Below are positions 6,022 to 44,097 of a DNA stretch of 58,570 nucleotides, piece by piece. A program made the position numbers and the translations under genes. This DNA comes from a virus. The notes beneath the pieces were generated by a model. That model was not told where the DNA came from and did no database searches. It was given only the letters and a program-made list of their open reading frames with translations. Each line of letters begins with the position of its first letter. Position 1 is the stretch's first letter. The stretch spans positions 1 through 58,570 of the IMG/VR virus record IMGVR_UViG_3300006153_000019; one strand, written 5' to 3'.

Positions 6022-6066
6022 ATTTATCCCTACCTCTTTTTCTTCTTTCTCGCTACGCCTTTAGCT

Positions 6067-6347: not shown

Positions 6348-6509
6348 TCCCATACCTCCAGTATGTATTCCCATCATTATAGCAATTTTAGGGAGGGGTT
6401 GCAATCAGTCTTTGTCATATTCTTCATTGTAAATAGCCTGACCGCAATTCTGATAATGCCTTGCGTATGGACTGCACGTCCATTTACACGACGGGCACGC
6501 CCAATCCGC

Positions 6510-9550: not shown

Positions 9551-9706
9551 TTATTCTCCTTTTTCGATATATGATTTTACTTCATCAAAAGAAAATTGTG
9601 ATTTTATAAGGTCATGGGTATAATATTTCCATGTTGTCTCCAGGTCATTTCTAAGCAATTCAGACATTTCAACCAAAGTATTTGCTACGGTTTCAATTTC
9701 AAACAT
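9551..9706 (-). CDS. small hypothetical protein (51 aa, below the ORF-track cutoff)
   Basis: ATG overlaps the stop of 9699..11027 (ATGTTTGA); open to the TAA at 9551. Confidence 0.35.
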   Translation of the reverse strand: MFEIETVANTLVEMSELLRNDLETTWKYYTHDLIKSQFSFDEVKSYIEKGE

Positions 9707-11027: not shown

Positions 11028-11461
11028 CAGCCTTTCCCCACCTCGTCTTTTACTGCCTTAATCCATTCGTTTTTATGTAATCGCTTTGCTTCCTCAAAAA
11101 AGTGGTCTGTTGTCCCTGGTTCATGGTATACAAGCGGTTTTCCAGTCGGGAATTTCTTCTCGTGCTTTTTCGCCCACGAACTTCCGTTTGCCGCAAGATA
11201 TAATTCTCCTTCGTAAATATAGTGGCTATATGGTGCGCCATACTCCAACACTCCGCCATATATCCCTTCCGGAAATGTTGCGCTACCCCTCAATCCTCCG
11301 TTTAAATGCGGTACAAGCGGCTCACAATCCTTTTTTACGGCGGCATTCAAAACAGCTTGTGCGTTTTTCAAATTCCTATCAATACGCTTTGTGTCAATTT
11401 TTATAGACACATTTCCAACTGTTGTATTTATTTTTGCCACATCATCACACCCTTTCAACAT
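11027..11461 (-). CDS. minor capsid / HK97-gp10-like protein
   Basis: 144-aa ORF between portal and gp7-like gene; ..YGAPYSHYIYEGE.. resembles minor capsid families. Confidence 0.45.
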   Translation of the reverse strand: MLKGCDDVAKINTTVGNVSIKIDTKRIDRNLKNAQAVLNAAVKKDCEPLVPHLNGGLRGSATFPEGIYGGVLEYGAPYSHYIYEGELYLAANGSSWAKKHEKKFPTGKPLVYHEPGTTDHFFEEAKRLHKNEWIKAVKDEVGKG

Positions 11462-11490
11462 TCCCTATGTGTTCTCTGATTCTCATAAAA

Positions 11491-11775
11491 TCACCCGAAT
11501 ATGCTTTTCTTCACCACAACGCTTGTCCTTGTGGTATTATTGATAATCTCTTTCTTTGGTGGAATTGGCTGAACCGCATTATCCACCAATTTACAAGAAA
11601 CAAATTTATAGCTTGTCTTTGTCTCTTTCCATGCCATACCCTTTTCTATTGCTGTTTGTGTGTTCATGTATGCCGGATAGCGTCCGGCTATTACTTCTTG
11701 CTTTACTTCCTCATAATTGCATGAGGGGCATTTTTCGACAAGACATTCCTCAAAATTTCTATATGGACACTTCAT
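11491..11775 (-). CDS. Cys-rich (CPxx..CPSC) small protein, hypothetical
   Basis: ATG after GGGGAGGAATAGGAAA; MKCPYRNFEECLVEKCPSCNYE. Confidence 0.5.
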   Translation of the reverse strand: MKCPYRNFEECLVEKCPSCNYEEVKQEVIAGRYPAYMNTQTAIEKGMAWKETKTSYKFVSCKLVDNAVQPIPPKKEIINNTTRTSVVVKKSIFG

Positions 11776-11779
11776 TTTC

Positions 11780-13228
11780 CTATTCCTCCCCAAACAATCG
11801 TTCTTCCTCTGGCTCCTGCTCTGCCTTTGCCTCTGCTACCATTGCAAGAGCTTCTTCTTCGGTATATCCCCTATGTAGGACAAGGAAGCGTGCCTTTGAC
11901 ATATATCCTTGGTTAGCAAGCTGTAAATCTAATAACATATCTTCCTGCTTATTTACTGCAATATCCTCAAAGTCACAGAATAATTCATAATTTCCAAATT
12001 CTGTCGGAATGGTATCACCGTTAATTACAGACATGGAATCAATAATGTAAGCTATATCATGGATTGCCCCGACACGACCATCGCCATTGCTTTCTGGTCT
12101 ATCTAGCAATGCCCTGTAAGATAATACCGTATTAACTGTGCGCCTTTCTGCCGCCTCTATTTGTGTGGCTGTGGTTGCTACTATTCTCTGACCATTAAAT
12201 ACATAATAGCCAATATCCAACCCAACTTTGGCAGCTATGATATTGAGATAAAAATTTATCCCTTCTATTCGACTTGCAACCTGTAGTTGTGGTTGCCACT
12301 GCTCTACGGGCTTGCTATCGTCTGTCAGCCCTAATCCAGTATTAAAAATGAATTTAGGAAGCTTAATCCCATTCATGGTCGCATATTTGATAACAGACTG
12401 GTCAACCATCATCATAGGGGCTGATGTTTCCGTTTCCGTCCCCATAGTTGACATTGCAATATCCAGCCAGCGCAATTCTTCTATACACTCTGAAAAGCAG
12501 GATACCCCGAGGGGGCTGTCTGGGTCTATGGTGTTGCTGTATGGGTTCTTTATGTACACAAACAAAGGGTTTTCAAGGTTTTCTGCTGTAAACTCTGGAA
12601 CAATGTCTGCCCACTTAGTATTCTTAAGAGAGATTTCCCGCCCTATCTGGTCTTGCTGGTCCGACACAAAGGCCTTGTTGGACACTCTATACCTGCGGAC
12701 TGATACCATTTCCCCGGCTTCGCTCTTCTGCGTGCTGTCCTCGTACCTGTGCCACTCTGCCCTGGTATAAAATTTCTTACCCTTCTGGTGAAAAGAGAAG
12801 AATATCACTCCGGTAATATTTTCATTGCTGTCAGAATCTGTGACAAGGAATCTGTCCGGCGGTATGTAGTCTATTCCATCCCCATTCCACTTTGCCATCA
12901 CACCGCCAAGCCGAATCACCTTTTCCATGTTTTTCTGGGCGTTCTTTAGGAAATGGTCATCAATCGCTTTCTGGATTCTCTTGGCAGTTTCCCCAGTTCC
13001 ATATTTTGACTGCACCTTAATGTCAATATTTTGCGTAATCAACTTAGCCAGTTCACGGGCTACGGTGTTTGAAAAGCGGATTGTCCGGGTATCGCCCTTT
13101 ACCCACGGCGGCTTGCCACTCTCCAGCTGCTGCCACAGCTTAATGGCAGCGTCCATTTCCGGCGAAAGGTACGTTTCCACGCCGAAAGCCTTTTCAACTG
13201 CTTCTTCGTATAATTCCTTTATTGTCAT
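11780..13228 (-). CDS. portal protein (SPP1 Gp6-like)
   Basis: 482 aa, position downstream of terL, size and composition typical of SPP1-type portals. Confidence 0.85.
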   Translation of the reverse strand: MTIKELYEEAVEKAFGVETYLSPEMDAAIKLWQQLESGKPPWVKGDTRTIRFSNTVARELAKLITQNIDIKVQSKYGTGETAKRIQKAIDDHFLKNAQKNMEKVIRLGGVMAKWNGDGIDYIPPDRFLVTDSDSNENITGVIFFSFHQKGKKFYTRAEWHRYEDSTQKSEAGEMVSVRRYRVSNKAFVSDQQDQIGREISLKNTKWADIVPEFTAENLENPLFVYIKNPYSNTIDPDSPLGVSCFSECIEELRWLDIAMSTMGTETETSAPMMMVDQSVIKYATMNGIKLPKFIFNTGLGLTDDSKPVEQWQPQLQVASRIEGINFYLNIIAAKVGLDIGYYVFNGQRIVATTATQIEAAERRTVNTVLSYRALLDRPESNGDGRVGAIHDIAYIIDSMSVINGDTIPTEFGNYELFCDFEDIAVNKQEDMLLDLQLANQGYMSKARFLVLHRGYTEEEALAMVAEAKAEQEPEEERLFGEE

Positions 13229-13309
13229 TATCTCTTATCCTTTCTATGGCTTTCGCTCCCCTGTATGGCTTGCGGTGTTCTTTGCCGTGGGTGATGGATT
13301 TGTCAAGGC

Positions 13310-13951
13310 TCATGGTTTCGGCTTCTCCATCCATTTAACGCAATTATACATATACTCATGTTCACTTTCAGCAGAAAAACCAGTTTCGCTTATTTCGTCC
13401 TCAACAATATATCCCAGAATCATCTCTCCATGATTATCACAGCACAAAACTTCTTTATCTGGCAATGTGCCTTGTTCACACAAAATCCAAATACAACTGT
13501 CTAACCTCTTTATATTTTCCGCCTCTAATTCCTCTATGTAATCATCTTTATGGTCACAATTATGGCAGATAATCGTAGACTTTTGCGCAAACGGATTTTT
13601 GATTTTCTCATTGACTTTATCAGTATGCCAGCGTTCTAATTCTTCATTTGCCGCTTGCAGCTTTGCGGATAAGGCTTCTATGGTGTCGGCGGCTTGCCCT
13701 AAAACTCTTCCGAGCCGCTTACCTTCAAAAATTTCAGAAAGTTCCCTCAATTCCTTTACCTGTTCGCTAATCATGCTCATTCTGTCAATCCTCCAATCAC
13801 AGTTTTTCCCGCATTTAACTGAACAATATTCGCACCTTGCTTTTGGACATGGAGCATTTGTATGTTTGCATGTAAACGCAACGACATTCTTTGGAACATG
13901 GCACTCCTTATTCTTTCTGTTTACACATAGAAATTTGTCACATATTTCCAT
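13310..13951 (-). CDS. Cys-rich protein with DUF551-like C-terminus
   Basis: 213 aa; C-terminal ..YMYNCVKWMEKPKP resembles the DUF551 WMPLP ending. Confidence 0.45.
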   Translation of the reverse strand: MEICDKFLCVNRKNKECHVPKNVVAFTCKHTNAPCPKARCEYCSVKCGKNCDWRIDRMSMISEQVKELRELSEIFEGKRLGRVLGQAADTIEALSAKLQAANEELERWHTDKVNEKIKNPFAQKSTIICHNCDHKDDYIEELEAENIKRLDSCIWILCEQGTLPDKEVLCCDNHGEMILGYIVEDEISETGFSAESEHEYMYNCVKWMEKPKP

Positions 13952-13986
13952 TTCCCTATCCTCCCCTTACCACATTGGCAGATGCT

Positions 13987-14211
13987 TTAATCTATACCGC
14001 CTGACTTTAAGATTTCGTCTATTTTTGCATCGCCCTCAACACAATACTTTTCAAAAAGATAATCTTCCAGTCTTTCACCAACTTCATCCACATCATAAGC
14101 AGTGGGAATATTGTCCAAATTTATGATTTTTGTCATTGCGCACCCCATAGGGCTAATTACCGCTTTTGTGATGTGGCAATATTTTAATTCATCCGCATCA
14201 ATTAATCTCAT
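13987..14211 (-). CDS. hypothetical protein
   Basis: 74-aa ORF between terL and 13951. Confidence 0.5.
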   Translation of the reverse strand: MRLIDADELKYCHITKAVISPMGCAMTKIINLDNIPTAYDVDEVGERLEDYLFEKYCVEGDAKIDEILKSGGID

Positions 14212-14239
14212 AGTTTCCCCTTTCTACCACATAGCCACT

Positions 14240-15565
14240 TTAATATTTCCACCTCAACCGCCGCCGCAGGAATGTATAGCAAAAATAGCGGTCGCTATCG
14301 AGACAATGATCGAACTCCTTTATCACAGCATCCTCTGGGCTTTCCATATCCCATGAATACAGCCCGTACTCATTTATGGTCGCTTCGCAATCCTCATGAT
14401 AGCTGATTATCCCTCTGTTTAGGAATGTTGTCTGTACCCGTATTCCGTCCAATACGTCATTTTCTGCGCCTTTGGCAATATACTTTCCGTACTTCTTTAT
14501 GACTTCGATAAAAGTAGCCGCTGACGGGTCTACTATGATAAGCGATACCTTTCTATCCCCAATCAACTTACATATTTCTTGATAATGCGTTTCATCATCT
14601 CTCCGTATTCCGGTTTCCTTGCTGTCATAGTAATATTCATATTCCTTTTGTGCGTGCCGCCCATCAAACGCCCACAAGCCAGCAGCAAACGGATTTACGG
14701 TTCCATGGTCCACAGACACTACCCATTCTTTTTCACCGGTCATGTGTTTGTCTTTGACGTGCTTGTCCTCGTCAAACATTGAGTAGACAAGACCTTCTGC
14801 CACGCACCACAGCCCCTGGATGTACCGCTTAAAGAACACGCCCACATACATTCCACGATAACGGGCTTTAATCCTCTCTGACAGAGATAAATTGTCGTCC
14901 ATAGTGAAATGCAGATATACAAGCCGCTTTTCCTCTGCCTTATCAATCCAGTTGACCTTGAACCAGTGACGGGGGCTGTCCGGATTACAGTTAAACCACA
15001 TCTTAGAACCATCAACAGACAATCGCCCAGTTGCCTGGTTTACAAAGGATTCCGGCATAAGCGCCACTTCATCAAAGAAGAAGCCAGCACAGGTTATACC
15101 TTGCACCAAATCCTGTGACCGTTCATCCTTCCCACCAAACAGATAAAAGTAATTTGTCATATCTCCTTTTGATACTATCAAGAGATTGTCAGAGCGTTTG
15201 TCTATCACAGCATATTTCCGGCTTTTTAGCATCAGTTTCAGCCAAAACAGAACATTTCGCCGGAAGGAACCAATGGTCTTTCCTGCCATACCGAAATTCT
15301 GTTGGTTGAAGCTGTTCATAGCCCACAGCACATATGACAAGGACATGGACAGCGTTTTACCGCTCCTGATTGCCCCGTCTGCTATGATTCCGTCCATGTC
15401 CTTTACTGGGCTGGCCGGACACCACCAAGTAAGGACTTTCTTCTGCTTGTTGGAGAATGGCTTGAACTGGAATCCCTGCTTTTGCACCTTTGCTTTCATT
15501 GCGGCGGCGCGTTTTGCAATGCTTTTGCGGATATTTTCTATGCGTTCATCAATGCTGTTTTTCAT
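14240..15565 (-). CDS. terL: terminase large subunit (PBSX/Terminase_3-like)
   Basis: 441 aa; Walker A DGAIRSGKT; follows terS. Confidence 0.9.
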   Translation of the reverse strand: MKNSIDERIENIRKSIAKRAAAMKAKVQKQGFQFKPFSNKQKKVLTWWCPASPVKDMDGIIADGAIRSGKTLSMSLSYVLWAMNSFNQQNFGMAGKTIGSFRRNVLFWLKLMLKSRKYAVIDKRSDNLLIVSKGDMTNYFYLFGGKDERSQDLVQGITCAGFFFDEVALMPESFVNQATGRLSVDGSKMWFNCNPDSPRHWFKVNWIDKAEEKRLVYLHFTMDDNLSLSERIKARYRGMYVGVFFKRYIQGLWCVAEGLVYSMFDEDKHVKDKHMTGEKEWVVSVDHGTVNPFAAGLWAFDGRHAQKEYEYYYDSKETGIRRDDETHYQEICKLIGDRKVSLIIVDPSAATFIEVIKKYGKYIAKGAENDVLDGIRVQTTFLNRGIISYHEDCEATINEYGLYSWDMESPEDAVIKEFDHCLDSDRYFCYTFLRRRLRWKY

Positions 15566-31440: not shown

Positions 31441-31487
31441 GGGTGCTAACGGATACTAATTGTGTCTGTTAGTGCCCTTTATTTTTG
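31441..31487 (+). terminator. intrinsic terminator inside the 5' leader of the tape-measure gene (attenuator candidate)
   Basis: 10-bp stem GGGTGCTAAC / GTTAGTGCCC then TTTATTTTT, ending 5 nt before the SD GGAGGTGAG. Confidence 0.5.
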
Positions 31488-31498
31488 GAGGTGAGTTT

Positions 31499-34400
31499 GT
31501 GGCAGATGGTCGGGTTGTAATTGATACAGAAATTAACACAGATGGTATTGAAATTGGCGAAGCAGATATTGTCAAAGCTATGAAACGACTTACTGTATCT
31601 ATTAACCATCTATCTGACAAAATCCAAGGACTTTTTACTGGAATAGGTATTGCTGCTGAAAAATCATATGGCCAAATTCAGAATACATCAAAAGGTATAA
31701 ATGAAATTTCAAATTCTGCACAATCAGCAGAAGAAAATATTGAAGATTTGCAGAAGCAAATGGAATCAATCACTATAACTGGATTAGATTTTGAACAAAA
31801 AGAGTTTGATTTGGAAGAGGAACCAAGAACTATAACTGTTAAAAATGTTGGTTATGACAAAGCAGCTATAGAATATATTGAGAAATACAGTCAGGAATCA
31901 ACTAAAGCTGCACAAGATGTCAACCAATTACAAAAAGAAATTTCTGAATTGCAAAACAAACTAAAAGAACTTGAAAAATCACATGTTTATTTTGGTGATG
32001 ATGAATATGATGAGGCTTTTATAAAGCTTCAAGACTTAAAACAATCTCTCAAAGAATATAAAGAAAATTTAGTTAGCCCTATTGATACTACCACAATGGA
32101 GGGGGAAATTGAGGCTTTAGTTAGCAAACTTTCTGAATTAAGAAGGGAAGGCCAGGGACTAGGCGATACCGAATATGATGAAACAGTACGTCAACTTGCT
32201 ATAGCTAAAGAGAGAGTAAAGGAATATGCTGCTGAACTTTCAAAAACACCAAAAATGGTTGAAAGAGAAAATCAGCTTTTAGCTGAAAAACAAGCAAAAG
32301 CAGAGGCGGCAGCAAAAAGAGAAGAAGAACAACAGGCTAAAGCACAAGCTCGTGCAGAAGCAGTAGCTCAAAAAGAAGCTCAAAGGCAAGCAAAAGCTGA
32401 AGCGGATGAAGCAAAGAGAGTAGCAGCAGAAGAAAAAATACTTGAAGCAAAAAGAGCTGTAGAAGTTCAAGAGGCAATGGAAGAACAGCGACTTAAAGAG
32501 ATTGCAGAAACAGCCCGTGTATCTTCTGATGAAATAATAAATATGCGGCAGGAGCTTGAAAAATTAAGTTCTAGGCAAGCTGATTTAAAAAAGGCCGGAT
32601 TAGGAGAAGGTTATGAAGAATATGACCAAAATATTATTAGGATAGAAAATATACGAAAAGAAATTGATGAATATAGAAAAACACTTACAGATGTTGAAGA
32701 AAAGGCAAATAGAAATATTTTTTCTGGAATAATAGAACAATTAAAAAAACTATCAAATATAGCCCAGAAGGCATCAACAGCATTAGCAAAAATAACCGGA
32801 CAAAGAATTTTAAATGGTCTAAAAAAAATTACTGCTGGCATTTTTGGGCTAAATAAGACAACAAATAAATCTACATCAGGTTTTAATACATCTTTAAAAA
32901 CACTATTAAGGTACGGAATTGGCATAGAATCATTATTTACCTTAATAAATAAGCTTCGGTCTGCATTAGTGGAAGGTTTTAAAAATTTAGCTCAATATTC
33001 TAATGATACTAATGCTACGATATCTGGCTTAATGGCCTCGCTTGAACAATGTAAAAATGCTTTAGCTACAGCATTTGACCCAATTTTACAAGCAGTAGCC
33101 CCAGCTTTAAATTATTTAATAAATTTGGTAACAGCAGCAGCAACAGCAGTAGCACACTTAATAGCAGCTTTAACCGGAAAAAGTACCTTTATAAAAGCAA
33201 CTAAAGTACAAAAGGATTATGCTAAATCTCTTAAAGGTACAGGTAGTGCAGCTAAATCAGCAGGAGAGGATGCCGAAGGTGCACTTGCTCCATTTGACAA
33301 ACTCAATGTTATGGCTGATGAAGCAACAGGAAAAGGTAGTGGCGGCGGTGGTGGCGGAGCTGGTGGAACACTAGCGGAGGATATGTTTGAAACTGTCCCT
33401 GTAGAGAGTAAATTTAAACAGCTTGCAGATAATCTTAAAAAATTTATTAAATCGGAAGATTGGAAAGGGCTTGGCGCTTATATTGCAAATGGTCTTAATG
33501 CAGGTTTGCAAAAGATTTATGACGTAATAAGTTGGGATAATGTAGGGCCTAAAATTACATACTTTGTCAATGCATTTACAGAAACTTTTAATAGTATTGT
33601 AGATAATCTTGACTGGGATTTGCTTGGCGGAACTATAGGCGCAGGAGTCAATACAGTTGTAAATACTCTCAACCTTTTAATTGAAGGTATTGATTGGGAA
33701 AATATTGGAATCAAACTTTCTGTCGGATTCCGCGGAATGTTAAATGAAATTAACTGGACTAATTTAGGCAATCTTATCGGAAATAAATTCATGATTACAT
33801 GGAATATATTCAAGGGATTTGTTGACGATATGTGGAGAACGAATAACTTCACAGGGTTATCTGGTTGGAATGAGCTTGGAATTTCATTGGCACAGGGATT
33901 TAATGGCGTCTTTGAAAAAATGGATTTTGGCCAAATTGGTACAACTCTAGGTAAAGTAATAACAGGAATATTTCAAGCTGCTATAGATTTTGCAAAAACT
34001 TTTGATTGGAAGGGACTTGGAGAAAATATAGCAAATGGAATAAACCAGTTTTTAGAGAATTTTGACGCTACAACGGTGGCAAAAGGAACTAATGAGGTAA
34101 TAAAAGGATTACTTGACTCTCTGATAGCAGCTATAGAAAAAACTGATTGGCATTTGATGGGGGAAAAACTAGCAGAATTTCTTGAAAATCTTGATTGGAA
34201 TGGAATTGCTGATAGAGTTTTTGAAGCAATAGGCGCTGGTTTTGGAGGCTTTTTTAGTTTCCTTCAGGGACTTATAGGGGACGCTTGGAATGATGTAATA
34301 GATTGGTGGCATGAAAACGCTTATGAAGATGGCGAATTTACTATACAAGGACTTTTTGATGGCATAATAAATAAGTTAAAAGATATTGGTTCATGGATAA

Positions 34401-35224
34401 AAGAACATATATTTGACCCATTTATAAAAGGATTTAAAACAGCTTTTGGGATTCATTCGCCTTCTACAGTAATGCAGGAAATGGGTGGCTACTTAATGGA
34501 CGGTCTGAAAAATGGAATTAGTAATTTTATTCCGAATGTAATTCAAAAATTTGCAGACCTAAAAAATAAAATAATTTCCAAATGGGACGAGGTAAAACAA
34601 AATACTGCTACTAAATGGGAAGAAATTAAAAGTAATTTATCTCAAAAATGGGATAACTTAAAAACTACTGCCGGAACAACATTCAACAGTATAAAACAAA
34701 AAGTATCTGAAATGTGGGGAAATGTTCAGACGGATACATCTTCCAAATGGGGAGATATTAAAAATACTCTATTTGGAGTTTGGGAAAGTCTGAAAGATAA
34801 AGCAGAAAAAATATTTGGCAAAATCAAAGACGCTGTGAAAAATACTTGGGAGAAGATACAAGGTTTTGATGGAGATGTAGGAACTGCTGGACGGTCAGCA
34901 CTTGCAGCAGCTTCAGCAACAGTAAGAACAATGACCCCATCAGCTCAACCAGTGAATCTTCCTCGCCTGGCCTCTGGTACTGTAGTCCCTCCCCGTGCTG
35001 GTGAATTTGCTGCTATTTTAGGTGACAACAACCGTGAATCAGAAGTAGTATCTCCGTTATCTACCATAAAACAAGCGCTTGTAGAAGCTCTTGGGGAATT
35101 TAATGGAATGGGTGGAGATATCAACCTTAATATAAATCTTGACGGAAAAGTTATCTATCAAGATGTGATAAAAAGAAACCGAATGGAAAAAAATCGTACT
35201 GGCAAGAACCTTTTGTTGACATAG
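31499..35224 (+). CDS. tail tape measure protein
   Basis: about 1240 aa from the GTG after GGAGGTGAG; coiled-coil N-terminal part, G-rich segment, hydrophobic repeats; followed by distal-tail genes. Confidence 0.85.
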   Translation: MADGRVVIDTEINTDGIEIGEADIVKAMKRLTVSINHLSDKIQGLFTGIGIAAEKSYGQIQNTSKGINEISNSAQSAEENIEDLQKQMESITITGLDFEQKEFDLEEEPRTITVKNVGYDKAAIEYIEKYSQESTKAAQDVNQLQKEISELQNKLKELEKSHVYFGDDEYDEAFIKLQDLKQSLKEYKENLVSPIDTTTMEGEIEALVSKLSELRREGQGLGDTEYDETVRQLAIAKERVKEYAAELSKTPKMVERENQLLAEKQAKAEAAAKREEEQQAKAQARAEAVAQKEAQRQAKAEADEAKRVAAEEKILEAKRAVEVQEAMEEQRLKEIAETARVSSDEIINMRQELEKLSSRQADLKKAGLGEGYEEYDQNIIRIENIRKEIDEYRKTLTDVEEKANRNIFSGIIEQLKKLSNIAQKASTALAKITGQRILNGLKKITAGIFGLNKTTNKSTSGFNTSLKTLLRYGIGIESLFTLINKLRSALVEGFKNLAQYSNDTNATISGLMASLEQCKNALATAFDPILQAVAPALNYLINLVTAAATAVAHLIAALTGKSTFIKATKVQKDYAKSLKGTGSAAKSAGEDAEGALAPFDKLNVMADEATGKGSGGGGGGAGGTLAEDMFETVPVESKFKQLADNLKKFIKSEDWKGLGAYIANGLNAGLQKIYDVISWDNVGPKITYFVNAFTETFNSIVDNLDWDLLGGTIGAGVNTVVNTLNLLIEGIDWENIGIKLSVGFRGMLNEINWTNLGNLIGNKFMITWNIFKGFVDDMWRTNNFTGLSGWNELGISLAQGFNGVFEKMDFGQIGTTLGKVITGIFQAAIDFAKTFDWKGLGENIANGINQFLENFDATTVAKGTNEVIKGLLDSLIAAIEKTDWHLMGEKLAEFLENLDWNGIADRVFEAIGAGFGGFFSFLQGLIGDAWNDVIDWWHENAYEDGEFTIQGLFDGIINKLKDIGSWIKEHIFDPFIKGFKTAFGIHSPSTVMQEMGGYLMDGLKNGISNFIPNVIQKFADLKNKIISKWDEVKQNTATKWEEIKSNLSQKWDNLKTTAGTTFNSIKQKVSEMWGNVQTDTSSKWGDIKNTLFGVWESLKDKAEKIFGKIKDAVKNTWEKIQGFDGDVGTAGRSALAAASATVRTMTPSAQPVNLPRLASGTVVPPRAGEFAAILGDNNRESEVVSPLSTIKQALVEALGEFNGMGGDINLNINLDGKVIYQDVIKRNRMEKNRTGKNLLLT

Positions 35225-35233
35225 GTGATAAAT

Positions 35234-35647
35234 ATGAGAAGTGATTATCAAGGATATCTAATTAAATTTGGAGATTATCAGTTGCCAAATTCATTCATAA
35301 CTGAATATGCGATTGTCCCTAATCAGCGTATCGAGAAAAAGGCATGGAGGGATAACACGGAGTATTTACAACGTGTTACCTCTCCTAACTTCAAAACCAC
35401 TATTAAACCAGTAGTTAGAAAAATGAATCAAGATGAATTTGATTTATTTATTTCCATCAAAGCCCATGGATTATTAAATATTGACCAACGCAAATACAAT
35501 GTAACCTATTGGAATACAGAAACCATGACTTATGCAACAGGGGAATTTTATGTACCAGATATTGAAAACAAAATAACTCATATTGCAGATAATGACACTG
35601 GGGAAATGTATTATGACGGGTTTACTTGGGAAATGATTCAATATTAA
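35234..35647 (+). CDS. distal tail protein-like small tail component
   Basis: 137 aa directly after the tape measure gene; call by position. Confidence 0.5.
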   Translation: MRSDYQGYLIKFGDYQLPNSFITEYAIVPNQRIEKKAWRDNTEYLQRVTSPNFKTTIKPVVRKMNQDEFDLFISIKAHGLLNIDQRKYNVTYWNTETMTYATGEFYVPDIENKITHIADNDTGEMYYDGFTWEMIQY

Positions 35648-35656
35648 GGTGGCAAC

Positions 35657-38149
35657 ATGATAAATTTAGAACAAAGATTTAAGGATTTATATAATACATA
35701 TGGCGGAAAAAGTGCCCGTCTAGTTTTCTACAAAAAGCAATATCATCATACTGTATATCCTAGAGCTGGGTTATATCCATCATACCAGTTGTATCCCCAT
35801 CAATATGAGGAAGATGTTGTGGATTTTGTTATAGGTGATGACATGATTCACACTGATACACTGGAAATCACGGAAAGTTTGTGTTCAGATGAAAACCTAG
35901 ACTTTGGAGCATGTGAAGCGGCAAAACTTGAGATAGTGGTTTCGGGTGATAAATATATTCGTCCATTATACCCACGTTCTGGGCTGTATCCGCACGCTGA
36001 TTTATATCCTGCTGAAAGCCTAGTAGGACGTGAATTTGCCCTTGTGGAGTCATTTGTCAGCATAGAGGATAGTTATCCACATGTCGGTCTATATCCACAT
36101 GCTGGTCTTGTTCCCTCTAAAAGTATAGTTCGTGGGTTGTTTACTATAGAATCTATTCCGAAAGAAGATGATAGGGATACCCGCCGAATTATTGCATATG
36201 ACCGCATGAACCGTTTTAATATAGACGTATCTGATTGGTATGAAACAATACCATTTCCTATTACATTAAAGCGATTTCGGGCAGCATTATGCAGCTATGT
36301 TGGTATTCCACAGGTCAATACAAATCTGGTAAATGATGATTTGATAATTGAAAAAACATTAGACACAGAAACACTAAATGGACGGGATTTAATTAGGTAT
36401 ATTTGTCAAATTAATGGCGTATTTGGAAATATCAATTACAATGGTGAATTTCGTTATGTAGTGATTCCAAAAAAGGACAGGATTACAGATACAATCACTA
36501 TATATAAATCTGTGGATTCCGAGGAATTCATAGTACCAGCTATTGATAAAGTAAAAATACGCCAAGAAGAAGCGGACATTGGTGGAAGCAGTACAGGCGA
36601 AGGAAATAACTTTTACATAATTGAAGGTAATTTTTTAGTATTTGGAAAAACTACAGCGCAATTAAATCAAATTGCTAATAACATTAAATCTGTTGTAAGC
36701 GAGCTGGAATATCGTCCAGCTACGATTGTAGGTAATGCAGCCCCATGGTATGAAATGGGTGACAGGATACGGATATCAACAAGTGATGGTGATGTTAATA
36801 CTATCATAATGTATCGTACATCTTCTGGTATACAAGGCCCCACAGATACGATTGAAAGCACTGGCAGTACTGAGCTTAACCAAACATTTAATCTTGAATC
36901 ACAGATAATTCAAACAAAAGGATTAGTAGCGAAAGTTAAATTTACAGTTGAGGAAGTTTCAACAGAGCTAATAAATTTTGAGAAAGAAACCTCCACGAAA
37001 TTTACTCAAACGGCTGAAAAGATTGAATTAGAAGCAAAGCGGGCTACTAAAGCTGAGGGAGAGTTATCTGCTAGAATTACCATAACAGCAGAAGCAATAA
37101 CTACCGAAGTTACACGAGCCACTAAAGCAGAGGGGACACTTAACACACGTATTACCCAGACGGCAGAATCTATAACATCAGAAGTCAACAGAGCTAAAGG
37201 CGAGGAATCAAGATTAAATTCTAGGATAAATCAAACTGCTACTGATATTTCCTTAGAAGTAACAAGAGCTACCAAAGCAGAGGGAGAACTGTCTGGAAAG
37301 ATTACCGTACAAGCTGATAGGATTACATCAGAAGTAACAAGAGCTACCAAAGCAGAGGGAAATTTAAGTAGTAAAATTACTCAAACAGCAGACGCAATAA
37401 ATGTTAGAATTGATAATACGAATTATTCATTAGGGTCCGTAAGCATGGATTTATCACTAACGGCCGAAGAACTAAGGTCAGAAGTTAGCAGAGCTAAAGA
37501 AGCTGAAAGCAGTATAATAAGTCAAACTTCAAGTATGATATCGGCAAAAGTAAGCAAAGGTGATGTATGTTCTCAAATTAACCAAGAGGCAGGACAAATA
37601 AAATTAACAGCTAATAGACTTGTTTTTGACTCTAAAAATATCAAACTAGATTCTAGTGGTATCAAAGTTATAGGGGACAAATTTTCCTTTAGCGTTGATT
37701 CCAGTGGCGTATCTCTTGGAGATTTTGAAGTAAGTGATGAATATGGTCGTAATACATTCCAAAGTAAAGACCAAGTAAATGGTATGTCAACAGCAGAAGT
37801 AACAAGCGGAAAGTACTATTTATGGGCTGGATATGGTAGCGGTAGTTATGGCATTGATTCACTGTTTTTGGTAAATACTTCTCAAGTTCATGCCACTCAT
37901 AATTTTTTTCTGCATGGGCCAGATGGTAAAGGAGGTACTAAGGTGATAAATGTATTTGACGCTATTGTAGCGTTGCAAGGTGGTGGAACAGGAGATACTT
38001 GTCCATCTGACAGTAGTTGCAGCTCTTATTCTAGTTGTAGTTCAAAGACCAGTTGCAGTTCAAAAACTAGCTGCCCAGATGATACTGCAAGCGGATGTTC
38101 TATCAAAGGTTGCATAGCCCTTACATGTGGGCCAGATGATGTAAAATGA
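35657..38149 (+). CDS. tail-associated / tail fibre protein (830 aa) with GLYP repeats, 25-aa fibre repeats and a Cys/Ser-rich C-terminal tail
   Basis: YPRAGLYP, YPRSGLYPHADLYP and YPHVGLYPHAGL motifs; 5 copies of VTRATKAEGxL..IT.TAE.ITSE; position after the distal tail protein. Confidence 0.8.
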   Translation: MINLEQRFKDLYNTYGGKSARLVFYKKQYHHTVYPRAGLYPSYQLYPHQYEEDVVDFVIGDDMIHTDTLEITESLCSDENLDFGACEAAKLEIVVSGDKYIRPLYPRSGLYPHADLYPAESLVGREFALVESFVSIEDSYPHVGLYPHAGLVPSKSIVRGLFTIESIPKEDDRDTRRIIAYDRMNRFNIDVSDWYETIPFPITLKRFRAALCSYVGIPQVNTNLVNDDLIIEKTLDTETLNGRDLIRYICQINGVFGNINYNGEFRYVVIPKKDRITDTITIYKSVDSEEFIVPAIDKVKIRQEEADIGGSSTGEGNNFYIIEGNFLVFGKTTAQLNQIANNIKSVVSELEYRPATIVGNAAPWYEMGDRIRISTSDGDVNTIIMYRTSSGIQGPTDTIESTGSTELNQTFNLESQIIQTKGLVAKVKFTVEEVSTELINFEKETSTKFTQTAEKIELEAKRATKAEGELSARITITAEAITTEVTRATKAEGTLNTRITQTAESITSEVNRAKGEESRLNSRINQTATDISLEVTRATKAEGELSGKITVQADRITSEVTRATKAEGNLSSKITQTADAINVRIDNTNYSLGSVSMDLSLTAEELRSEVSRAKEAESSIISQTSSMISAKVSKGDVCSQINQEAGQIKLTANRLVFDSKNIKLDSSGIKVIGDKFSFSVDSSGVSLGDFEVSDEYGRNTFQSKDQVNGMSTAEVTSGKYYLWAGYGSGSYGIDSLFLVNTSQVHATHNFFLHGPDGKGGTKVINVFDAIVALQGGGTGDTCPSDSSCSSYSSCSSKTSCSSKTSCPDDTASGCSIKGCIALTCGPDDVK
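37034..37408 (+). repeat. five tandem 75-bp coding repeats (25-aa fibre repeat)
   Basis: repeated ..RATKAEGELS.KIT.TAD.ITSEV.. units; approximate bounds. Confidence 0.7.
37979..38146 (+). other. 56-aa Cys/Ser-rich C-terminal extension of the fibre (8 Cys; C-x5-C four times, then x7, x4, x4)
   Basis: GGGTGDTCPSDSSCSSYSSCSSKTSCSSKTSCPDDTASGCSIKGCIALTCGPDDVK. Confidence 0.8.
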
Positions 38150-39474
38150 AAAAAATTCTTGAATATTTAAACAGTATTTATAATGTTCTTGGCTTGCAAG
38201 AATATGACCCAAATAAAAAATACAGAATTAGTCCATTTATTATAAAAGAAGAAGTTGCAAACGGATATTTGATTTATAATACATTAACTTGTGAGATGGT
38301 TTTTGCTACAGATGAAGATTTGACAGAAAGCCAAGAATATTTTGTACTTAGATGGTTCCTAATAGATAAAGATATTGACCCATATAGTATGTGTAAAACT
38401 TTCAAGCGAATATGGACACACATGAAAAAAAGAAAGTATATGGGAAAGATTGCACAGTATGTTATTTTTACCACAACAAATTGTAATGCTCGGTGTAAAT
38501 ACTGTTATGAATCTGGATGTTTAAAAGAGGATATGTCTGTAGAAACGGCACAAAAGGTTGCTGAATATATCAATATGACTACAAATGGGAATGTATCAAT
38601 TCAATGGTTCGGTGGAGAACCGTTATACAATGCACAGGCTATAAATATCATATCTGAAAGATTGCGTGAGAGTTTTTTCCCCTATTCCTCTACAATAGTT
38701 TCTAATGGATATTTATTTGACCAGTGTGACATTAAAACGCTAAAAGACCTGTGGAAACTGGACAAAGTGCAGATTACATTAGATGGTACAGAGGACAATT
38801 ATAATGTTGCTAAAGCCTATGTGGAAGCCTGTGAAAATCCATTTGATAAAGTTCTGAACAATATAGAATATCTAGTATCAAATGATATTGGTGTTACTGT
38901 ACGAATGAATCTATCAAATGACAATATAGACGATATGCATAGTCTGATTGATTTGTTGCATGAACGGTTCGGAAAGTATAAAAGATTTTCTGCCTATTCT
39001 CACCCGTTATTTGATGGTGGGAGCTTCCACGGTGCCTGCACCAAAGAAGAACATAGAGAAATTACAGAAGGATACATAGCTATCCAAGAACATTTAAAAC
39101 GCTGTGGTCTATGTGGTGATTATCCTATTGATAAAGTAAGAATTACAGAATATTGCATGGCTAATAGCATGTCAAGTGTTACTATATCGCCAAGTGGCAA
39201 AGTAGGGCTATGTGAGCATTACCCAGATACAGAGCTAATTGGAAATATTCAAACCGATACAGATAAATTTGATAAAAGGGTAGTATCTGCTTGGCAAGAA
39301 CTATATGAAAGTATAGAATGTCGCACATGCCCATTATATCCGCAATGTGCGAAAATAAAAAAATGTCCAACGAGTGAATGTAATGCAGAGTGGCGGGACC
39401 ACCTAGAATTCCAGATACGGGATTCTATGCGAAATACATATAAAAAATACAAGGAGGAGCAGTCAACCAGATGA
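38146..39474 (+). CDS. radical SAM / SPASM-domain peptide-maturase-like enzyme
   Basis: CNARCKYC (CX3CX2C) at about aa 113; C-terminal ..SPSGKVGLCEHY..CRTCPLYPQCAKIKKCPTSEC (SPASM-like); ATG overlaps the fibre stop (ATGA). Confidence 0.8.
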   Translation: MKKILEYLNSIYNVLGLQEYDPNKKYRISPFIIKEEVANGYLIYNTLTCEMVFATDEDLTESQEYFVLRWFLIDKDIDPYSMCKTFKRIWTHMKKRKYMGKIAQYVIFTTTNCNARCKYCYESGCLKEDMSVETAQKVAEYINMTTNGNVSIQWFGGEPLYNAQAINIISERLRESFFPYSSTIVSNGYLFDQCDIKTLKDLWKLDKVQITLDGTEDNYNVAKAYVEACENPFDKVLNNIEYLVSNDIGVTVRMNLSNDNIDDMHSLIDLLHERFGKYKRFSAYSHPLFDGGSFHGACTKEEHREITEGYIAIQEHLKRCGLCGDYPIDKVRITEYCMANSMSSVTISPSGKVGLCEHYPDTELIGNIQTDTDKFDKRVVSAWQELYESIECRTCPLYPQCAKIKKCPTSECNAEWRDHLEFQIRDSMRNTYKKYKEEQSTR

Positions 39475-39647
39475 AAGCAATAGCATATAAACCAGATGAC
39501 CTAGATGAACTTGCTAGGTTATTAGATTTAATTCCAGTCAAAGGCATGAAACGTATTAGGATTATGTCAAGAATTGGCGATATCTTGAATTCTGGAATTC
39601 CTGTAGAAATAAACGATAACAAAGAAAACAATGAAAATAAAAAATAA
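39471..39647 (+). CDS. 58-aa Cys-free small protein translationally coupled to the rSAM gene
   Basis: ATGA overlap with the rSAM stop; MKAIAYKPDDLDELARLLDLIPVKGMKRIRIMSRIGDILNSG.. Confidence 0.45.
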   Translation: MKAIAYKPDDLDELARLLDLIPVKGMKRIRIMSRIGDILNSGIPVEINDNKENNENKK

Positions 39648-39662
39648 AAGGAGAATCTGTAA

Positions 39663-40202
39663 ATGGAAGAGATTTACACCAGTAAGTTAGCGGACGGAAT
39701 TACCAACGAAACACAAGAACAGGAGCCACTTAGCCTAGAGGAGGCACAAATTAACGCTCTGGCAACTTTAGCCGATACAGCGGGAGCACTTTCCCGTGCA
39801 GTATCAAAAATTGCAGCTTATGTACCTACTCAATGGGTGGATAACAGCGAACCTAGTATTACAGCCGCAAGACTCATGCACATTGAAAACGGTATCAGAG
39901 ACGCTACTAATGCGGTTAATAATGCAATCGACAGCATTACTGAGCTAAACGGCAGAATAAAATATATAACTAAAGGAAGTTTTACTATTGAGATATCAAA
40001 TGTACATGAAACTCGTATCACTGTACCAGGTGATTTTAATAATTTGGATAATTATTTTGTAATAATTTTTCCTGGAGGCTCTGAAATTTTAGATAAAACT
40101 TGGAGCTATTATATACGTGAATCAAATAAAAGTTCATTTGTAGCAGGTTTTTCTATATCTAGCCCAGGAAGTTATTTATTTAAGTATATTGTGATTGCAT
40201 GA
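39663..40202 (+). CDS. fibre-like receptor-binding protein: constant 94-aa N-terminus plus currently expressed C-terminal cassette a
   Basis: SD AAAGGAG; ..WVDNSEPSITAARLMHIENGIRDA.. fibre-type motif; crossover site A inside the gene at codons 95-98 (LNGR). Confidence 0.7.
   Translation: MEEIYTSKLADGITNETQEQEPLSLEEAQINALATLADTAGALSRAVSKIAAYVPTQWVDNSEPSITAARLMHIENGIRDATNAVNNAIDSITELNGRIKYITKGSFTIEISNVHETRITVPGDFNNLDNYFVIIFPGGSEILDKTWSYYIRESNKSSFVAGFSISSPGSYLFKYIVIA
39945..39956 (+). repeat. crossover site A (CTAAACGGCAGA)
   Basis: 20-nt identity ctgagctaaacggcagaata (39940..39959) with inverted site D. Confidence 0.75.
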
Positions 40203-40304
40203 ATCTAAGCAAATTTTCTTAATATTTAAGTATGGAAGGAGTAGTCCCTCAGAATGGAAGCAAATCAACTTTGAAACCGAATAAAATTTATTAGAAATAA
40301 TACA

Positions 40305-40814
40305 TTATGTGGCGGAAAAATATCTCCATTCACTCCATTGTTCACTCGCATTTTTTCTTTTAATAGCTATTTTATCAGACCCAAAGCCAAATACAATCAT
40401 TGCACCATATAGAATATTTTCTGTTACCAACTGTAATACAAATGCTGCATTTCCTCCAAGTTCTGGGGGAAGGTTTGTACTACCTGCTATCGCTTGAAAG
40501 ATTGAATATGATGGTGGATTATCTAAATCATATTTTCCTTTTGGGATTCTGCCGAATTGGGAAAATTCTACTGGTTCTGAATAACTGGGAGTATTTCCTG
40601 CACCACGTTCTAAAGTAAACAATTTATTATCTTGAGTTATAACAATAAATTGTGCTGAATTATCAGTTTGTACATTTGCAAATATACGACACCAAACACG
40701 TTCACTTACCATCGATAATAGTTCCGTAAAATCCATTCCACAATACCAACCACTTTTTGTTATAACATTAAGGCTTTGGTGCGTTAAAATTTTAGAAGAA
40801 AATCTGCCGTTTAG
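40305..40814 (-). other. silent C-terminal cassette b (169 aa, opens at LNGR of site B)
   Basis: frame open from the core through the annotated 143-aa ORF 40305..40736; ends ..EQWSEWRYFSAT. Confidence 0.65.
40803..40814 (-). repeat. crossover site B (inverted)
   Basis: tctgccgtttag; in-frame TAG immediately upstream (40815..40817) on the minus strand. Confidence 0.75.
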
Positions 40815-40823
40815 CTAATTAAA

Positions 40824-40854
40824 TCCGTCTATGAACTTCTGTTTCATAGACGGA
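40824..40854. terminator. perfect 12-bp-stem hairpin insulating site B from the endolysin gene
   Basis: tccgtctatgaa-cttctgt-ttcatagacgga. Confidence 0.45.
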
Positions 40855-40953
40855 CTGTAGAAATAATGCTAATGGTTTTAACACATTGTATAAACGCAAA
40901 AACGATAAAATATAACGAGATATTTTAATTTATTAGTAGAAAGGAATAAATTT

Positions 40954-41730
40954 ATGAATCCAAAAGAAAAGGTAATACATATTGCTAGAAAAGAAGTAGG
41001 ATATCTGGAAAAGAAGTCTAATAAAAACCTAGATGATAAAACAGCTAATGCAGGTAGCAACAATTATACTAAATATGCAAGGGACCTATATCCTAGCTTA
41101 CAGGCACAAGCATGGTGTGATATGTTTGTAGATTGGTGCTTTGTTCAAGCTTTCGGGCAGGTCAAGGCTAGACAAATGCTTGGCGGTGGGTTTAGTGCTT
41201 ATACGCCTACTTCTGCTCAATATTATAAAAATAAAGGAAGGTGGAGAGGATTCCCAGAGGTAGGAGACCAGATATTTTTTAAAAATTCTACCCGTATCTG
41301 TCACACCGGAATTGTTACTACTATATCATCAGAACAAGTGTTTACCATTGAAGGGAATACAAGTGGTGCCTCTGGTGTAATTGCTAACGGTGGCGGAGTA
41401 TGTGAGAAATCCTATCCCTTAAACTATGTTAATATTGCTGGATATGGTCGTCCTGATTGGTCACTGGTAGACACTCCTAAATATGATATAGGTTGGAACC
41501 ATGACAATAACGGCTGGTGGTATGCTGATACACAGTCTAGTTATTATAAATCCTGTTGGCAGGTCATCAATGGACACCGATACTATTTTAATGAAGATGG
41601 TTATGCATTAAAAGGCTGGCAAGAAATTGAGGGGAAATGGTACTATTTTGAGCCAAGAGAGGGACACCCACTAGAATGTGGATTGTATGTCACAGATTCT
41701 ACAGGTATGCAGACAGTAGGCGTTTTCTAA
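40954..41730 (+). CDS. endolysin: CHAP domain plus cell-wall-binding (CW_binding_1-type) repeats
   Basis: ..NNYTKYA..QAWCDMFVDWCF..ICHTGIV..EGN.. (CHAP Cys/His); C-terminal GWW/YYF repeats. Confidence 0.85.
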   Translation: MNPKEKVIHIARKEVGYLEKKSNKNLDDKTANAGSNNYTKYARDLYPSLQAQAWCDMFVDWCFVQAFGQVKARQMLGGGFSAYTPTSAQYYKNKGRWRGFPEVGDQIFFKNSTRICHTGIVTTISSEQVFTIEGNTSGASGVIANGGGVCEKSYPLNYVNIAGYGRPDWSLVDTPKYDIGWNHDNNGWWYADTQSSYYKSCWQVINGHRYYFNEDGYALKGWQEIEGKWYYFEPREGHPLECGLYVTDSTGMQTVGVF

Positions 41731-43048: not shown

Positions 43049-44071
43049 TTATGCAACACATTTATAGTATGAACTTCTTACATTTTCCTGCCCCACATTA
43101 CAATAAATTAAGGTAGTATCCATTTTTGTATGACCCATCAGCTTCATTAGTTCTTCAATCTTCATTCCTCTATTCATCATATTGGTAGCAAAGGTCCTGC
43201 GAAATCGGTGCGGGTGGACATTTTCTATCCCTGCCTTTTCGCCAATTTTCCGACAAAGCAATTCTATCCCTGGTTTCTGTATGCGGTTAAATGGCTTCTT
43301 CGTACAGATAAATAATGGCTTATGTTTAATTTCCTCTAAGGTGCTATTTTCTATTGTTACCCTCCATTTTAAATAATCCTTTAAGTGAAATGCTGCTACA
43401 TCTGAAAAATACACAATTCTTTCCTTGTTGCCTTTTCCAGTTACCAGGAATTGTTTTTTAACCATGTCGATATCTCCTATATTTAAGGAGCTTAATTCAC
43501 TGACTCGTAATCCAGTTGAATGTAGAAATTCAATCAATGCCCTATCTCGTACATGCGTACAACATTGCCGTATTGCTTCCATATCCTCAGCGGAAAAAGC
43601 TTTTCTGATGGTCTGCTCAACTTTTGGAGTTTCAATCCGTGATACAGGATTACTATTGATTACCCCCTCATTCAGCAGGAAACTATAGAAACTATTCAAA
43701 TAATGGATTTTATTCTGAATTGTAGACATCTTATTACCTCGCTGTTCTTGTAACATTCCTAAATACCAGCGTAAATCCATGGTAGTTATATCCTTAAATG
43801 GTTTGCCTATAGAAGTACGGCAGTAGCGTAATTCACCTATATATTGTTCTAGCGTCCCATCAGCTCGCCCCGCAATGATTTTAGACGCTTTGAACAGTTG
43901 CATTAACCGGATATCTTCATCAGATTCTATAGGAATAATCTCACATTTTTCTTCTACAATAACCTTATCCCGAAAGGTAATGAATAGAACATTTTTAAGT
44001 TTCTCAATCTGTCCAGAATCTAAAACTTCACTCATTATTTGACAGACTTCTAGTAAAATCTTTTCTAACAT
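43049..44071 (-). CDS. XerC/D-Rci-type tyrosine recombinase adjacent to site D (candidate shufflon invertase)
   Basis: ..HPHRFRRTFATN.. and ..LMGHTKMDTTLIYCNV..; ATG after CAGGGGGA; about 100 bp from site D. Confidence 0.8.
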   Translation of the reverse strand: MLEKILLEVCQIMSEVLDSGQIEKLKNVLFITFRDKVIVEEKCEIIPIESDEDIRLMQLFKASKIIAGRADGTLEQYIGELRYCRTSIGKPFKDITTMDLRWYLGMLQEQRGNKMSTIQNKIHYLNSFYSFLLNEGVINSNPVSRIETPKVEQTIRKAFSAEDMEAIRQCCTHVRDRALIEFLHSTGLRVSELSSLNIGDIDMVKKQFLVTGKGNKERIVYFSDVAAFHLKDYLKWRVTIENSTLEEIKHKPLFICTKKPFNRIQKPGIELLCRKIGEKAGIENVHPHRFRRTFATNMMNRGMKIEELMKLMGHTKMDTTLIYCNVGQENVRSSYYKCVA

Positions 44072-44097
44072 AAAAATCCCCCTGTTTTGCATGATAT

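Follow-up and report, generated by a model that had tools for sequence, protein, structure and literature searches.

A putative radical-SAM maturase for the cysteine-rich tail of a phage fibre protein, encoded and exchanged with that tail as a cassette

CteB of the SCIFF system (PDB 5WGG/5WHY), a thioether maturase of the ranthipeptide type, combines an N-terminal domain resembling the recognition element (RRE) of ribosomally synthesised and post-translationally modified peptide (RiPP) pathways with a radical S-adenosylmethionine (radical-SAM) core and a seven-Cys SPASM region, and its substrate is a free, Cys-rich peptide of ~45 aa. The TIGR04463, Clo7bot, CefB and PapB families are likewise radical-SAM/SPASM maturases paired with Cys-rich precursors, and the radical-SAM/SPASM enzyme QhpD installs several Cys-to-Asp/Glu thioethers in the QhpC subunit, which is retained in a functional complex and not secreted. 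The 58,570-nt viral stretch analyzed here (IMG/VR record IMGVR_UViG_3300006153_000019, positions 1 to 58,570; hereafter the window) encodes an enzyme of this class directly behind a large phage fibre protein with a Cys-rich C-terminal tail. Unlike the CteB/SCIFF, PapB/freyrasin and QhpD/QhpC systems, the putative core peptide is fused to the C-terminus of a large phage structural protein, and the enzyme gene belongs to the tail module. We consider it probable that this CteB-like maturase, with its RRE-like domain, acts on the Cys-rich tail of the fibre encoded directly upstream. The class of the enzyme, the nature of the tail, the strict co-occurrence of the two and their transfer together as a cassette are documented below for the following features:

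Positions 35657..38149, plus strand: tail-tip fibre protein of 830 aa (open reading frame), the proposed substrate protein.
Positions 37979..38146, plus strand: Cys/Ser/Gly/Asp-rich fibre tail of 56 aa, the proposed core peptide, with its first Cys codon at 38000.
Positions 38146..39474, plus strand: radical-SAM/SPASM peptide maturase of 442 aa, the proposed modifying enzyme (by Pfam, NCBIfam, AlphaFold2 and Foldseek).
Positions 38146..38430, plus strand: RRE-like N-terminal domain, about residues 1-95 (AlphaFold2 model).
Positions 38482..38505, plus strand: CX3CX2C motif CNARCKYC, residues 113-120, read from the sequence and predicted to bind the SAM-cleaving [4Fe-4S] cluster.
Positions 39154..39381, plus strand: SPASM-type auxiliary-cluster region, recognized by invariant columns and by its alignment to the SPASM region of CteB.

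The likeness to CteB appears to extend through all three parts of the enzyme and to the Cys-rich nature of the substrate, but identity to CteB is ~14-16%, the gene is phage-encoded and lies among tail genes, there is no precursor of the SCIFF type, and the candidate substrate forms the C-terminal end of a virion protein of 830 aa. Compared with TIGR04463, Clo7bot, CefB and PapB, the window enzyme scores 75-127 bits against cut-offs of 340-600, and the fibre tails are variably spaced and are carried by large proteins; the x5 spacing found four times in the window tail is reminiscent of the CefA and freyrasin cores, which are of the repeat type. The Cys- and Asp-rich fibre tails would fit chemistry of the QhpD type, but QhpC is a small periplasmic enzyme subunit (~100 aa) of a bacterial operon, and the tail described here is part of a large phage structural protein; QhpD is not among the 25 NCBIfam matches listed for the enzyme, and no search aimed at QhpD was made. 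In homologous fibres the corresponding place at the C-terminus is taken by the Peptidase_S74 chaperone domain, a modular add-on for fibre maturation, but this domain is autocatalytic, needs no separate enzyme, involves no radical chemistry, and has no sequence similarity to the Cys-rich tails. Full-text literature searches, with most subscription journals outside their reach, returned no description of a radical-SAM gene arranged with a phage fibre tail, and we know of no such arrangement.

The 442-aa protein is matched by Pfam Radical_SAM (PF04055, 61.4 bits against a cut-off of 29.5) and by Fer4_12. In an alignment of 28 homologues (36-79% identity), C113, C117 and C120 of the CX3CX2C motif are invariant, as are C337, G351, C356, C392, C395, C401, C407 and C412, which form the pattern CX13GX4C...CX2CX5CX5CX4C with seven Cys; the last SPASM element is spaced x5, versus x3 in the reference pattern CX9-15GX4C ... 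CX2CX5CX3C ... C, in which seven or eight conserved Cys serve two auxiliary [4Fe-4S] clusters. A sequence-only reading of the window had proposed both the CX3CX2C motif and a SPASM-like Cys-rich C-terminus, and both proposals are borne out by this conservation. The best NCBIfam matches are maturases of Cys-rich ribosomal peptides throughout (TIGR04463 'rSAM_vs_C_rich', 1e-36; Clo7bot, 4e-31; CefB 'Cys-every-fifth', 8e-25; PapB, 7e-21; also the FlmE/OhkG and geopeptide families), and the cofactor enzymes MoaA and NirJ are matched far lower. A profile of the homologue alignment matched CteB best among PDB entries (5WGG, E 1e-20, residues 109-399), followed by SkfB. The AlphaFold2 model of the enzyme (predicted local distance difference test score, pLDDT, 87.4; predicted template modelling score, pTM, 0.86) was placed by Foldseek closest to CteB (E 4e-17, TM-score 0.61-0.66, 437-465 aligned columns, equivalent to full length), then to SkfB, TigE, SuiB and the anaerobic sulfatase-maturating enzyme anSME. 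Cys pattern and predicted fold thus indicate a CteB-like peptide maturase of the SPASM subgroup of the radical-SAM superfamily, within the broad peptide-maturase group and outside every named equivalog family. By profile and structure alike the enzyme falls among peptide-modifying maturases and not among cofactor or sulfatase enzymes, as the sequence-only reading had supposed. An identity as anSME was considered and rejected: neither CxPxR nor SxPxR occurs in the tail, the enzyme carries an additional domain of ~95 aa at its N-terminus, and anSME ranks below CteB, SkfB, TigE and SuiB in Foldseek and is absent from the top NCBIfam matches.

The N-terminal extension of about 95 aa, which had been noted to lie where maturases place an RRE, is modeled as three strands (residues 32-37, 40-45 and 50-54) followed by three helices (56-61, 63-68 and 79-94) at a pLDDT of about 90 or more. 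An RRE is described, in the wording quoted in PMC10352776, as a winged helix-turn-helix motif of three helices and three beta elements. The domain is likely to be an RRE by its predicted fold, and the Foldseek alignment to the RRE-containing CteB runs the full length of the protein.

The fibre protein is matched by Pfam Gp58-like and by phrog_18190 (6.7e-130). It is preceded by a tape measure protein (31460..35224, phrog_1535, 7e-108) and a DUF6711 distal-tail-type protein (35225..35647, 4.9e-31), an order that is kept in 12 related loci (among them L001, L002, L004 and L146-L153); from this gene order and its phage-tail homology, the fibre occupies the Tal (tail-tip) position. Its last 56 residues (GGGTGDTCPSDSSCSSYSSCSSKTSCSSKTSCPDDTASGCSIKGCIALTCGPDDVK) contain eight of its 13 Cys (residues 782, 788, 794, 800, 806, 814, 819 and 824; spacings x5, x5, x5, x5, x7, x4 and x4), and the remaining 774 residues contain five; the binomial probability of at least eight of the 13 falling within a given 56-aa stretch is 4e-7. 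The length of the fibre and the sequence, position and spacing of its tail agree with the earlier description. Four C-x5 units, including a duplicated CSSKTS hexapeptide, are present in the window tail, which ends in CGPDD. The hexapeptide is encoded by a tandem duplication of an 18-nt unit at 38036..38071 (tgcagttcaaagaccagt / tgcagttcaaaaactagc); P0121 and L001, which belong to the lineage of the window, have one CSSKTS unit fewer, and tail length therefore evolves through gain and loss of repeats.

Among 41 distinct fibre tails, the prevailing residues are Cys (19.7%), Gly (19.4%), Asp (16.6%) and Ser (13.6%), with Asp enriched at positions +1 and +3 after Cys, and Cys spacing varies across relatives (modes x4, x5, x1 and x3). 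A GP[GDLAM] motif lies within the final 14 aa of 29 of the 41 tails, typically as CGPGD or EGPGC and also as WGPGW; the window example is CGPDD (38126..38140). The motif recurs in tails attached to unrelated fibre domains and is not found in the short bacterial precursors that were read, and the maturase may use it as a C-terminal docking ('follower') signal. The tail has no match in Pfam. A fibre-specific leader in front of the tail was considered and rejected, since the helix preceding the tail is found also in fibres that have no radical-SAM gene.

The radical-SAM family comprises 2974 proteins at E <= 1e-5. Loci were collected from the radical-SAM side by inspecting the open reading frame that ends upstream (an alignment-based scan of IMG/VR found the loci, and a single-protein scan found none) and from the fibre side with an alignment of five fibre sequences (two loci in a metagenome scan); all of the related loci derive from gut, rumen or faecal anaerobes, with L049, L056, L062 and L095 belonging to metagenome-assembled lineages of Lachnospiraceae or Oscillospiraceae. 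In the phage context, seen in 20 loci with the window counted among them, the gene upstream of the enzyme encodes a large protein (276-1073 aa) of which the body is 0-1.4% Cys, versus 7-21% Cys in the last 25-80 residues. From the fibre side, a Radical_SAM gene was found downstream of all four Cys-tailed proteins (P0138, P0142, P0195, P0135) and of none of four tail-less ones (P0131, P0223, P0206, P0183), so that Cys-rich tail and enzyme are paired in 24 of 24 loci. Fibre homologues with no radical-SAM gene, in nine lineages, contain 0-2 Cys within their final 60 aa; those that possess a C-terminal domain of the window type (L129, the L130-L140 lineage, L141, L142 and L143) end after the final helix or with an acidic Gly/Asp/Ser tail, and in L143, the fibre with two Cys, both precede an acidic tail, the acidic tail regions themselves being free of Cys. 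The naive count of 24/24 versus 0/9 has a Fisher probability of about 3e-8, which is indicative only because the loci are not independent. The co-occurrence survey thus upholds the association put forward by the sequence-only reading, presence and absence of tail and enzyme agreeing completely in the sampled loci. Low-complexity acidic sequence was rejected as the feature that tracks the enzyme, since acidic tails free of Cys exist where there is no radical-SAM gene; the cysteines, not low complexity, track it.

The Cys-rich tails are attached to at least three unrelated fibre C-terminal domains, and a further one is attached to an FN3-like protein of 355 aa. The three domains are:

Tail-bearing C-terminal domain 1, the window type: 'GDFEVxDxYGR...YLWAGY...FLVN'.
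Tail-bearing C-terminal domain 2: 'FKALWLDDxWYEG...HLWDVxEVLQWLD'.
Tail-bearing C-terminal domain 3: 'WKGWGVLETVxxLWDYVHGGGW'.

A neighbour-joining tree places the fibre-linked enzymes in two exclusively fibre-linked clades that are separate from the enzymes of short precursors. The latter represent a bacterial context (Prevotella, Bacteroidales, Oscillospiraceae, Lachnospiraceae and others) in which the enzyme, 34-40% identical to that of the window in gut and rumen examples beside short Cys-containing precursors, lies behind short open reading frames of ~40-130 aa with leader-like N-termini (for example KKKFEKPxMEVVxL and ...DDLDxxxGG) and Cys-containing C-termini (L052, L055, L065, L067, L070, L071, L079, L103, L107, L115, L116, L121), and in which two or three tandem radical-SAM paralogues are common; this is the usual RiPP arrangement. 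Two or three tandem paralogues lie behind a single short precursor (e.g. MKEAYENPMVEIVEIDGG...) in L066, L092, L103, L121 and L125 (Oscillospiraceae, Lachnospiraceae), as RiPP clusters with several maturases. In L073, L089, L096, L099, L106, L118 and L120, related radical-SAM genes lie behind a protein of 245-280 aa ending '...LYRLGCNMEPEAA...', which belongs with neither the fibres nor the short precursors. Two IMG/VR contigs encode related radical-SAM enzymes of 506-528 aa beside proteins that are exceptionally rich in Cys: upstream of the enzyme in L005 (3310-4904, a 67-kb contig), one protein of 238 aa (43 Cys) and one of 285 aa (68 Cys); downstream of it in L007 (6514-9372, a 254-kb contig), one of 952 aa (139 Cys). 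In these two, entire proteins, beyond tails, may be substrates.

The fibre family (window 35657..38149, P0121-P0240) has a conserved N-terminal 60% and interchangeable C-terminal modules: Peptidase_S74, a 'YLERHYK' domain, a bare terminal helix, an acidic tail free of Cys, or a Cys-rich tail with a radical-SAM gene. Of the 120 best full-length homologues, 24 have at least four Cys in the last 60 residues, and all the others end in the self-cleaving Peptidase_S74 chaperone, in the 'YLERHYK' domain or at the helix. The same module (923-aa tape measure protein, DUF6711 protein, fibre, open reading frames of ~61 aa and ~257 aa) is found in L150 without, and in L147 with, an insert consisting of the Cys tail, the radical-SAM gene and a CHAP-like open reading frame. 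In GenBank phages, no nucleotide relative of 35000..41000 was found, and phage proteins in GenBank are at most 29% identical to the enzyme. The best match there, an unverified 'Enterococcus phage IME_EF3' fragment, was set aside as an ordinary cluster of short precursor, radical-SAM gene and transporter, with no fibre.

Comparison with the closely related locus L002 identifies one further feature:

Positions 37958..39301, plus strand: divergent cassette relative to L002, comprising the tail and most of the radical-SAM gene (DNA identity profile).

DNA identity between the window and L002 is 97-100% over 35675..36874, falls to 48-68% over 37958..39301, and returns to 98-100% over 39452..39901. 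Near-identity therefore covers the first two thirds of the fibre gene, resumes in the last ~100 nt of the radical-SAM gene and continues through a 58-aa open reading frame into the next gene, while the two enzymes are 53% identical and the two tails cannot be aligned. The profile indicates that tail and enzyme were exchanged together between otherwise near-identical phages, as is expected of an enzyme and its substrate. Class of enzyme, composition of the tail, co-occurrence and joint exchange strongly suggest that the fibre tail is the substrate of the radical-SAM enzyme. Beyond the cassette, a 179-aa open reading frame (39663..40202) starts out identical to a 283-aa protein of L002 and L001 but diverges further on and stops early; the divergence over 39902..40202 may mark another site of recombination, or the window copy may be truncated.

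The fibre, enzyme and small genes are tightly packed in the window: the TGA of the fibre gene overlaps the ATG of the 442-aa open reading frame (ATGA), and the stop codon of the latter overlaps, likewise, the ATG of the 58-aa open reading frame, which has no Cys.

Positions 39471..39647, plus strand: 58-aa open reading frame, a small conserved gene belonging to the fibre module, with a weak match to phrog_18977, at the right-hand edge of the cassette.

The sequence-only reading had taken both overlaps as signs of translational coupling. The fibre overlap is real in the window but is not kept in relatives, in which the distance between fibre and radical-SAM genes is usually -10 to +17 nt; what relatives keep is the close proximity of the two genes and not translational coupling itself. 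The second overlap is likewise genuine, but the membership of the small gene in the system does not stand. Its homologues (55-74 aa, pattern ...Y.Y......LL....V.G........I..ILDSG...) directly follow the fibre in L142, L143 and L150-L153, which have no radical-SAM gene, and follow the radical-SAM gene in L001, L002, L013, L049 and L146-L149. The 58-aa open reading frame was therefore rejected as a partner of the enzyme, and its ATGA coupling to the enzyme gene says nothing about shared function; gene order shows the radical-SAM gene inserted between the fibre and small genes of a conserved tail module. In L148, an IS605-type element (5784-7545; a resolvase-like TnpA and an OrfB/TnpB-like gene) lies between the Cys-tailed fibre gene and the radical-SAM gene, which is still present 2 kb downstream despite the insertion. 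In one fibre-linked sublineage, an open reading frame of 151-218 aa lies between the radical-SAM gene and the small gene (L146, 6896-7357; L147, 6819-7274; L149, 6921-7577); the copies in L147 and L149 are CHAP-like (E 4e-5 and 1e-4, under the Pfam cut-off), and the copy in L146 has no Pfam match. In other relatives (proteins P0042, P0047 and P0119 among them), CHAP is fused to the C-terminus of the radical-SAM protein (591-614 aa). Such open reading frames and fusions could be processing peptidases for the modified tail or plain lysin modules.

With respect to the product, the type of modification cannot be read from the sequence, and this is the first of several points that weigh against our interpretation. 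The scores of the enzyme fall far short of every NCBIfam equivalog cut-off among the families scored (TIGR04463, Clo7bot, CefB, PapB, CteB/SCIFF and AlbA; 126.7 versus 525 for TIGR04463, the best, then 108 versus 600, 87.6 versus 600, 74.9 versus 340, and 38.2 versus 850), and consequently its chemistry is not fixed by any characterized enzyme. Pfam SPASM (PF13186) is not matched by the full-length protein at E <= 0.1; the isolated C-terminus gives a sub-threshold match (18.1 bits against 21.5, E 0.0034), as does the L146 homologue (E 0.061). The isolated N-terminal domain has no Pfam match, PqqD included, and PqqD/RRE models score under threshold. On the side of the substrate, a leader-like recognition sequence specific to the fibres linked to radical-SAM genes was not found, and the AlphaFold2 model of the C-terminal 200 aa of the fibre (pLDDT 37.8) is too poor to judge whether the tail is exposed. 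The sample of loci on which co-occurrence was scored is modest, partly interrelated and not phylogenetically independent. Finally, the element in the window looks mosaic or possibly defective, so that expression of this copy in a working virion is not assured. Its layout is unusual for a single phage: the minus strand carries genes for terminase, portal and minor head proteins (9702..15565, or 9.7-15.6 kb), two integrases are encoded, one following these head genes (8054..9241) and the other past the lysis genes (43052..44092), and the tail module begins abruptly at the tape measure gene (31460), with no tube or head genes upstream of it. The element could be a mosaic, defective or rearranged prophage, two adjacent elements, or a chimeric assembly join; the arrangement of fibre tail and radical-SAM gene recurs on many independent contigs. 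The only CHAP protein of the window is an endolysin with choline-binding repeats, a combination typical of phages of Gram-positive hosts.

Other explanations of the locus may be weighed against these data. That the adjacency is meaningless, the tail being a metal-binding or disulfide knot and the radical-SAM gene an unrelated accessory gene with a host or small-molecule target, is very improbable. Cys/Asp/Gly-rich stretches can indeed bind metals, and accessory genes are frequent at module borders of phage late regions, but the agreement of presence and absence is complete across 24 positive and nine negative loci or lineages, the tail and the radical-SAM gene are replaced jointly, the fibre-linked enzymes form clades of their own, and the enzyme belongs to a family devoted to Cys-containing peptides. 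It is also unlikely that the tail is a true RiPP precursor, modified, then cleaved off and set free to act, for instance, as a bacteriocin or a signal, with the body of the fibre serving as a giant leader, or that the tail resembles a self-cleaving chaperone and is absent from the mature virion. Removal of this kind would have a precedent in the self-cleaving Peptidase_S74 domain that homologous fibres carry at the same C-terminal position; many tails have a Gly-Gly run ahead of the Cys region, resembling double-glycine leader cleavage sites; and the CHAP-like (papain-fold) open reading frame behind the enzyme in one sublineage, a weak match, could be a processing peptidase, as could the CHAP fusions elsewhere. 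Against release, there is no protease or exporter beside the radical-SAM gene in the window, Gly runs likewise precede the acidic tails of fibres with no radical-SAM gene, phage CHAP domains are usually cell-wall hydrolases, and in every phage-type locus the tail is joined to a virion protein, never free-standing.

There is a small chance that the enzyme modifies the tail by chemistry other than thioether formation, such as formylglycine formation (anSME-like oxidation of Cys or Ser), epimerization, C-C cross-linking or C-methylation. Each of these reactions is catalyzed by some SPASM enzyme, the good matches by fold include anSME, TigE and SuiB, and the enzyme reaches no equivalog cut-off; yet Cys alone tracks the enzyme, acidic tails free of Cys lack it, the short precursors of its relatives all contain Cys, the enzymes that match it best in sequence and fold (CteB, SkfB and the PapB family) make thioethers, the tail does not contain (C/S)-x-(P/A)-x-R, the target motif of anSME, and anSME does not have the N-terminal RRE-like domain found here. 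A Cys-to-carbon thioether as the product of the maturase can be proposed with moderate confidence, by analogy, since Cys is the feature that tracks the enzyme, every short precursor of its relatives contains Cys, the nearest characterized enzymes (CteB, SkfB and the PapB family) form thioethers, and the Asp-rich context of the tail Cys resembles the Cys-Asp links of PapB and QhpD.

Maturation of the fibre might proceed as follows. Upon late expression in a strictly anaerobic host, the enzyme would bind the exposed, flexible tail of the fibre, and its CX3CX2C cluster would cleave SAM reductively to give a 5'-deoxyadenosyl radical, which would take a hydrogen atom from acceptor residues of the tail, likely Asp, Ser or Thr. 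The tail Cys would then form several covalent cross-links, most probably Cys-S-to-carbon thioethers of the sactipeptide/ranthipeptide type, a class of link that joins the sulfur to an alpha-, beta- or gamma-carbon with a loss of 2 Da each, either within one chain or between fibre chains, and the modified tail would be kept on the virion protein as a covalently stabilized, highly variable fibre tip. Radical-SAM enzymes work only where the cytoplasm is anoxic and reducing, and habitats of this kind make disulfides unreliable; a tip cross-linked by thioether bridges, like the knot envisaged by the sequence-only reading, would be reduction-proof and protease-resistant, possibly with its chains stapled together, and would work under reducing conditions where disulfides fail. 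Any benefit of cross-linking to the phage is a matter of speculation, as is the suggestion that the extreme variability of the tails befits an exposed part that contacts a receptor or is under immune pressure.

It is possible, if short of probable, that in phages of gut and rumen anaerobes generally a dedicated radical-SAM enzyme places several thioether bridges in the fibre tip, perhaps between chains, as a reduction-proof replacement for disulfides. This would be the first radical-SAM modification of a structural protein of a virus, and would mean that RiPP cores evolve as hypervariable, swappable modules fused to receptor-binding proteins. If the fibre tail is indeed the substrate of the maturase, phages have taken over the logic of RiPP biosynthesis (recognition domain, radical-SAM core and Cys-rich core peptide) for their own particle instead of a secreted peptide, and a new class of virion modification would stand beside the isopeptide cross-links of the HK97 type. 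RiPP chemists would gain dozens of naturally occurring pairs of enzyme and substrate whose cores are very diverse, and genome mining would call for caution, because 'ranthipeptide-like' radical-SAM matches in prophages may not be antibiotic clusters. For the phages of gut and rumen anaerobes, the finding would explain how exposed fibre tips might be stabilized where disulfides are unreliable, through a swappable cassette of tail plus enzyme that would probably affect host range or particle stability.

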